Source of the DNA: a virus
Lineage: Duplodnaviria; Heunggongvirae; Uroviricota; Caudoviricetes
DNA length: 13,878 nucleotides
IMG/VR virus record: IMGVR_UViG_2802429219_000007
Strand: one strand, 5' to 3'
The position numbers and the translations under genes were made by a program. A model generated the notes under the pieces. It had not been told where the DNA came from, did not search any database, and saw only the letters and a list, made by a program, of their open reading frames with translations. This document shows, piece by piece, positions 13,375 to 13,878 of this stretch. How positions within the stretch are numbered: the stretch's first letter is position 1; each line of letters opens with the position of its first letter.

Positions 13375-13590
13375 ATGAAATCCATGGATAAGTTAACAAC
13401 GGGCATTGCCTACGGCACCTCCGCAGGCAGTGCTGGCTACTGGTTTTTACAGCTGCTCGATAAAGTCACGCCCTCACAGTGGGCAGCAATAGGTGTGCTG
13501 GGTAGCTTGGTATTTGGCTTGCTGACGTACCTGACAAACCTTTATTTCAAGATTAAAGAAGATAAGCGCAAGGCTGCGAGAGGTGAATAA
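13375..13590 (+). CDS. essD: Holin (phage 21 S-type, EssD-like)
   Basis: 71 aa [71 protein letters not shown] matches DLP12 EssD; SD GGAGGTGAGG; stop overlaps the next ATG (TAATG). Confidence 0.9.
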
Positions 13591-13750
13591 TGCCTCCATC
13601 ATTACGAAAAGCCGTTGCTGCTGCTATTGGTGGCGGAGCAATTGCTATAGCATCAGTGTTAATCACTGGCTCAAGTGGTAACGATGGTCTGGAGGGTGTC
13701 AGCTACATACCATACAAAGATATTGTTGGTGTATGGACTGTATGTCACGG
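13590..13750 (+). pseudogene. rrrD: 5-prime fragment of SAR-endolysin gene (RrrD-like lysozyme), truncated by insertion
   Basis: [54 protein letters not shown] matches the N-terminus (SAR signal-anchor) of DLP12 RrrD for about 54 codons; after about 13750 the frame reads [24 protein letters not shown]..., unrelated to lysozyme and with no catalytic domain. Confidence 0.8.
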
Positions 13751-13878
13751 GTGTTCTTGCCCCCTTATTTCCAGACAGGGGTTGTATCTTAAGTTAACAT
13801 TACCCGCTGACGTCGATATTCTCGCGGAGAGCGATAACCCAACGCACTATGCGGATGGTTTTCATTGTAATGCTCGAT
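13751..13878 (-). mobile_element. End of an IS3-family (IS2-like) insertion sequence, truncated by the window edge; includes the 3-prime end of the transposase orfB on the minus strand (13789-13878)
   Basis: Minus-strand translation from the window edge reads [33 protein letters not shown], the conserved C-terminal motif of IS3-family OrfB; the terminal 38 bp (TGTTCTTGCCCCCTTATTTCCAGACA...) resemble the IS2 terminal inverted repeat as I recall it. Confidence 0.65.

Follow-up and report, generated by a model that had tools for sequence, protein, structure and literature searches.

What has happened to the lysis genes of a lambdoid prophage in which an intact holin gene is followed by an endolysin gene that gives way, after about one-third of its codons, to an insertion sequence (IS)? 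This question is raised by the right end of a complete draft contig, PTSA01000058.1 (13878 bp), of the E. coli draft assembly GCA_002965785.1. The whole 13,878-nucleotide stretch of DNA is referred to here as the window. We favor, with a probability of roughly 80%, a simple insertion of the element ISEc48 into the endolysin gene rrrD of a DLP12/phage-21-type lysis cassette carried by a lambdoid prophage, with the endolysin lost and the holin kept.

The rrrD reading frame begins with an ATG at position 13590, which overlaps the essD stop codon, and runs off the window. Its codons 1 to 54 (positions 13590 to 13751, plus strand) specify a product identical to the N terminus of the 165-aa SAR endolysin RrrD of strain elppa4. 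At the DNA level, identity to many E. coli genomes and prophages is 100% through position 13751, where it ends. Intact rrrD continues at codon 55 with CATAC..GGAAAAGACATCATGCTCGG; the window from position 13752 onward reads TGTTCTTGCCCCCTTATTTCCAGACAG..., which is identical to the IRR of ISEc48, so that the change from gene to element falls exactly at the TG tip of this terminal inverted repeat. With perfect matches to known sequence on both sides, the switch is far beyond chance.

The IS portion of the window (positions 13752 to 13878, minus strand) corresponds to the first 127 nt, counted from the IRR end, of the 1336 bp of ISEc48, an element of the IS3 family, IS2 group. It is identical at 127/127 positions to the full copy in pEC0430-1 (E about 3e-60). 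The transposase gene orfB is represented, on the minus strand, by its last 29 codons (positions 13878 to 13792) and TAA stop (positions 13791 to 13789); the encoded fragment matches Pfam rve_3 (E 3.7e-6, profile positions 50 to 67 of 67) and is identical to the C terminus of full OrfB. The visible end of the element is the IRR, next to the transposase C terminus, so the transposase genes lie antisense to rrrD. A preliminary description had placed the break in rrrD after about 54 codons, attributed it to an IS2-like element of the IS3 family, and read the opposite strand as an IS3-family transposase C terminus, all of which agrees with these matches. Its 38-bp terminal repeat corresponds to the 37 nt that separate the stop codon from the IS tip; the actual imperfect repeat spans about 46 nt (approximately positions 13752 to 13797).

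The ISEc48 transposase is a DDE enzyme made by frameshifting between orfA and orfB. Indeed, reference copies are annotated [quoted passage not shown] and the full 1336-bp copy has TG...CA tips, imperfect inverted repeats, overlapping orfA and orfB genes, and HTH_21, rve, and rve_3 domains. This structure, together with 67% nucleotide identity to IS2, makes "IS2-like" the right label and ISEc48 the precise name. In the reference copy, IRR and IRL agree in 35 of 47 aligned columns, and the IRL end of the element reads ...GGGGGCCAGCTCA / ...CTGTCTGGTATTTCAGGGGGCCAGCTCA. The copies on the plasmid pEC0430-1 and on the WP2-S18-ESBL-08 and TOE17 chromosomes share with the window the same 127 nt, the IRR tip (TGTTCTTGCCCCC...), and a preference for GG at the target. 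They additionally show the orfA/orfB frameshift, the DDE core, the IRL, and the target duplication, whereas the window has the IRR end alone. ISEc48 is common in E. coli, and 405 complete genomes contain a full-length copy.

Insertions of ISEc48 and its close relatives elsewhere allow the target duplication at this site to be predicted. Six independent insertions (loci L002, L004, L005, L006, L009, and L011) are flanked by direct target repeats of 14, 16, 15, 16, 15 (one mismatch), and 16 bp, respectively. On this basis, the putative target-site duplication in rrrD would be the 14 to 16 nt (GA)CTGTATGTCACGGG at positions 13736 to 13751, with its second copy expected beyond the window. The IRR-side flank ends in GG in seven of the eight ISEc48-type insertions examined, the window flank included. 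Target duplications in the IS3 family are generally 3 to 5 bp, and those of IS2 are 5 bp. As expected, the IS2 copy in locus L001 is flanked by a 5-bp duplication, and the 14- to 16-bp duplications of ISEc48-type elements are unusual for the family. Searching the literature for ISEc48 and for long duplications among IS2-group elements returned nothing relevant. Scanning species representative genomes for the ISEc48 IRR gave a single 576-bp contig, labeled Acinetobacter idrijaensis, as the sole match, and these genomes are thus of no use for a survey of insertion sites.

The retained part of rrrD covers the membrane segment and the catalytic residues of the endolysin and little of its fold. The Gly/Ala-rich, weakly hydrophobic SAR (signal-anchor-release) segment occupies approximately residues 6 to 27 (nucleotides 13605 to 13670) and is identical to that of elppa4 RrrD, which itself differs from the DLP12 RrrD structure 4ZPU at one residue in this stretch (S28 versus P28). 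Downstream of it, the E-X8-D-X5-T lysozyme motif is kept in full, with E35 at positions 13692 to 13694, D44 at 13719 to 13721, and T50 at 13737 to 13739. Endolysins of phages 21, P1, Mu, and T4 have been described as carrying this motif (PMC9239132, PMC4640515). The 54 codons had previously been equated with the SAR domain, and the catalytic domain had been considered lost. The SAR segment is indeed there and most of the lysozyme fold is indeed gone, but the 54 codons also hold the whole E35-X8-D44-X5-T50 motif, and with it the catalytic residues.

Profile comparisons define what is missing. The 54-aa fragment aligns with positions 3 to 23 of the 125 positions of Pfam Phage_lysozyme (GH24) only, scoring 17.1 bits against a cut-off of 22.3, whereas intact RrrD (165 aa) covers positions 3 to 125 at 155 bits. 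Positions 24 to 125, about 80% of the fold, are absent, and the window copy of rrrD is therefore a disrupted gene. If this ISEc48 copy is canonical, the predicted fusion reading frame has 112 aa, 54 from RrrD and 58 encoded by the IS. Its product would join a SAR anchor and the E/D/T motif to IS-encoded residues without most of the lysozyme fold, so muramidase activity is not expected; with one-sixth of the fold, the RrrD fragment should be inactive. In contrast, the intact RrrD of related prophages aligns over residues 1 to 165 (E about 1e-110) in comparisons with the phage 21 S21/R21 pair (3HDE, 3HDF) and DLP12 RrrD (4ZPU), and RrrD and EssD of these relatives have the phage 21 R-type SAR N terminus with E-X8-D-X5-T and the P21 holin family in common with them. 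Intact RrrD of the relatives is near-identical to 4ZPU and 3HDE and is thus in essence the crystallized DLP12 RrrD and phage 21 R. Compared with R21 and 4ZPU, RrrD in the window stops after residue 54 and is followed by antisense IS sequence.

The holin gene upstream is unaffected. The essD gene (positions 13375 to 13590, plus strand) encodes a phage-21-type pinholin of 71 aa that is identical to EssD of elppa4, matches PF04971 (Phage_holin_2_1; bacteriophage P21 holin S) over positions 1 to 63 of 64 (E 2.2e-35), and begins with MKSM, preserving the dual-start motif M1-K-S-M4. The earlier view of essD as intact thus holds. A terminator-like hairpin with a T-run lies just upstream of essD (positions 13248 to 13269, plus strand), and a second lies after the Q gene (positions 10370 to 10393); both come from a consensus scan in which the count of such sites was not above that in shuffled sequence. 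The placement of hairpins after Q and before essD suggests that essD may depend on Q-antiterminated late transcription. In the consensus scan of the window, promoter and terminator sites were no more numerous than in shuffled sequence, and no hybrid promoter was seen across the junction. A search of the entire window against Rfam detected no RNA families.

The window ends at its right side because a short-read assembler cannot cross a repeated element, and 127 nt into ISEc48 this edge is an assembly break and no biological boundary. IS sequence of about 127 nt (126 to 127 nt) occupies each end of the contig, most likely as the leftover of a short-read de Bruijn assembler run with k = 127. At the left end, positions 1 to 126 (plus strand) are the right end of an IS21-family element, comprising the last 21 codons of istB (positions 2 to 64), its stop codon (positions 65 to 67), and a terminal ...GTTGACA; homology to relatives free of this IS begins at position 127. 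In the layout of intact relatives, the IS21-family tip adjoins prophage DNA at base 127, in a stretch without annotation that separates the cI-like repressor gene from kil/gam/bet/exo, and the leftward early operon is probably severed from its promoter by this junction. The prophage thus has at least two IS junctions, IS21-family on the left and ISEc48 on the right. The preliminary description had called rrrD "split," which goes further than the contig does: the 3' part of the gene and the second copy of the target duplication lie outside the window, and since the whole contig ends inside the IS, a split gene looks the same here as a truncated or rearranged one. As a lesson of method, a window edge lying some 127 nt inside an IS is an assembly boundary, and claims that something was lost need other contigs.

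Between its two IS junctions, the window belongs to a widespread prophage. Positions 127 to 13751 match 124 complete E. coli genomes at 99.9%, and in these genomes intact rrrD (165 aa), rzpD, iss, nohD, terminase, and portal genes continue past the point at which the window enters ISEc48. In strain elppa4, this region sits within a lambdoid prophage of full length that begins with integrase, exo, bet, gam, and kil, followed by a cI-like repressor gene, a cro-like gene, O, P, and ren. The DLP12-type genes emrE, ybcK, ybcL, ybcM, ybcN, ninE, ybcO, rusA, ylcG, and Q come next; cargo genes (lipocalin, YbgA family, and AraC-type regulator) precede essD, rrrD, rzpD, and iss, and terminase, portal, and capsid genes complete the order. 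The window is collinear with elppa4, differing by 10 substitutions and one single-base indel, and all annotated genes are open except the YbgA-family gene. Immunity and replication genes had been described as intact looking; these and Q are all open, but the early region is cut at the left IS21 junction. For a 579-nt query around essD, rrrD, and the IS end, genomes with any match have a median of two matching places.

Three cargo genes occupy positions 10427 to 13186 between Q and the holin gene: a lipocalin gene on the minus strand, the YbgA-family gene, and the AraC-type regulator gene. Their position corresponds to that of nmpC in K-12 DLP12. In the YbgA-family (DUF1722) gene (positions 11144 to 12103), a G-to-A change relative to elppa4 at position 11253 creates a stop at codon 37 and leaves open reading frames of 36 aa and 273 aa. 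The rusA gene (positions 9309 to 9671) is intact in the window (120 aa) and annotated as frameshifted in the prophage of elppa4, nearly identical in other respects, where a run of G residues has an extra G (G5 versus G4 near position 9402).

The exact ISEc48/rrrD junction, searched as a 38-nt string, had no match in either GTDB representative genomes or JGI metagenomes; a relaxed pattern, in which the end of any IS2-group element could lie up to 12 nt from the site, was likewise without matches in metagenomes, and the ISEc48 junction in rrrD was absent from 5,426 complete E. coli genomes. In a protein collection, the predicted 112-aa fusion, a 96-aa cut product, and one of the products predicted for the 3' junction were not found; a 105-aa RrrD fragment starting at M61 was found there on 207 contigs. 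We rejected the reading of such partial RrrD calls as one hot spot, as the fragments start and stop at many positions, the pattern of contig breaks in a repeated gene. A few contigs from metagenomes and from Logan also have the YbgA nonsense allele, and one metagenome scaffold with this rare allele has an intact 165-aa rrrD, which argues that the ISEc48 insertion is recent. Together with the intact rrrD of the 124 genomes, this scaffold indicates that the insertion is recent and private, although the prophage itself is widespread.

A closely similar insertion is known from other strains. In E. coli 13C1065T (NZ_CP019259.1; locus L001, positions 6243 to 8076) and L6-21 (NZ_CP123963.1), rrrD of a Rac-like prophage is interrupted by an element of the same IS group in the same orientation, with the IRR facing the 5' part of the gene and an antisense transposase; the site is 3 bp downstream of the ISEc48 site, and essD is intact. 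The element there is IS2, of 1331 bp and with a 5-bp GGCAT duplication, whereas here it is ISEc48. The prophage also differs, having a trkG/pinR neighborhood and an rrrD allele that is 89% identical over the junction query. Further, both halves of rrrD are visible in these strains, with 3' rrrD and rzoD directly behind IS2, while the window shows the 5' part only. The search that found this case could detect only insertions at this junction, so the shared site cannot be called a hot spot. A broader proposal, that rrrD codons 50 to 56 are a preferred landing site for the IS2 group, that loss of the endolysin with the pinholin kept might be favored in lysogens as a step of domestication, and that ISEc48-type elements might cut their targets atypically to give 14- to 16-bp duplications, strikes us as doubtful.

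With a single ISEc48 junction in view and both contig ends being IS junctions, the IS, of which 127 nt are seen, could instead be a truncated remnant or mark the end point of a rearrangement, deletion, or inversion. Recombination between ISEc48 copies, for example, would then have deleted or moved the 3' part of rrrD together with the spanin genes and perhaps the morphogenesis genes, and the contig would be an isolated prophage fragment between two IS. Truncated IRR-end remnants of ISEc48, 100 to 490 nt long, occur in many E. coli genomes, and such ends often outlive rearrangements. However, any repeated IS breaks a short-read assembly, and two simple insertions would give the same contig; moreover, between its two ends the window is collinear with intact relatives (10 SNPs, 1 indel). 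Simple insertion is further supported by the closest analogue, IS2 in rrrD of 13C1065T, which is a simple insertion with a duplication and with the gene halves in place. We regard a rearrangement at this site as unlikely.

An error in the assembly would be a different source for the same junction. A mis-join to an IS k-mer, or a minority subpopulation beside a dominant genome with an intact rrrD, could give a contig that stops exactly 127 nt into a repeat, which is typical graph behavior; partial RrrD calls at contig edges are common in drafts, and several prophages share rrrD alleles. De Bruijn contigs, however, require reads that span the junction, and the switch lies exactly at the TG tip after a GG target, like the GG of most other IRR-side flanks. 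A switch at the IS tip next to a GG flank is a signature of transposition, so a random chimera is unlikely, and we consider an artifact highly improbable.

The lysis genes of K-12 offer the nearest described system. K-12 DLP12 has the same cassette and gene order, essD-ybcS(rrrD)-rzpD/rzoD, and shares with the window emrE, ybcK, ybcL, ybcM, ybcN, ninE, ybcO, rusA, ylcG, and Q. DLP12 is a defective remnant, whereas the relatives of the window prophage have their full length, including genes for integrase, recombination, packaging, and the head; from its gene content, which includes emrE, ybcK, ybcL, and ybcM, the prophage looks like a full-length cousin of DLP12. K-12 mutants lacking ybcS (rrrD) alone or ybcS together with rzpD/rzoD, with essD kept in both, are viable and show 1.7- and 2.4-fold more outer-membrane vesicles, respectively (PMC7918800). 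These delta-R and delta-RRz mutants have an equivalent genotype, holin kept and endolysin lost, with the spanins lost too if the IS is polar. The K-12 mutants are engineered, whereas in the window a natural IS, and no clean deletion, inactivates the gene.

Under the preferred reading, a simple insertion, a copy of ISEc48 would have transposed into rrrD so that its IRR tip abuts codon 54, with its transposase genes antisense to the endolysin gene, and 3' rrrD would resume beyond the far IS end, after the duplicated 14 to 16 bp. The IS would uncouple the spanin genes rzpD and rzoD from the late promoter. Upon induction, the expected outcome is that the pinholin still depolarizes and kills the cell and that lysis and release of phage would require an endolysin from another prophage. 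Given a dead endolysin gene, the lysogen is unlikely to release phage on its own. Without induction, its genotype would approximate that of K-12 delta-R or delta-RRz, and the lysogen may likewise be viable and produce more outer-membrane vesicles. The preliminary description had also raised the potential toxicity of a holin without an endolysin. This concern adds little, since pinholin killing needs no endolysin: a pinholin kills the cell on triggering without further help (PMC9239132). SAR endolysins carry a hazard of their own, because spontaneous release is possible (PMC9239132). The same genotype has been built and grown in K-12 (PMC7918800).

The event is an ordinary, strain-specific gene knock-out, involving a catalogued IS in a catalogued prophage gene and no new biological system. 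Its significance is mostly one of strain annotation, where the endolysin gene of this prophage copy can be recorded as dead and a minimum of two IS junctions noted. Inactivation of prophage genes by IS elements is routine in E. coli. The 14- to 16-bp target duplication of ISEc48-type elements is the only item perhaps worth specialist attention. The ISEc48 copy of pEC0430-1 (locus L002, positions 2400 to 3900), a large plasmid, is inserted in the 5' region of an IS2 copy, with a 14-bp duplication of IS2 sequence, and adjoins remnants of iss and spanin genes.
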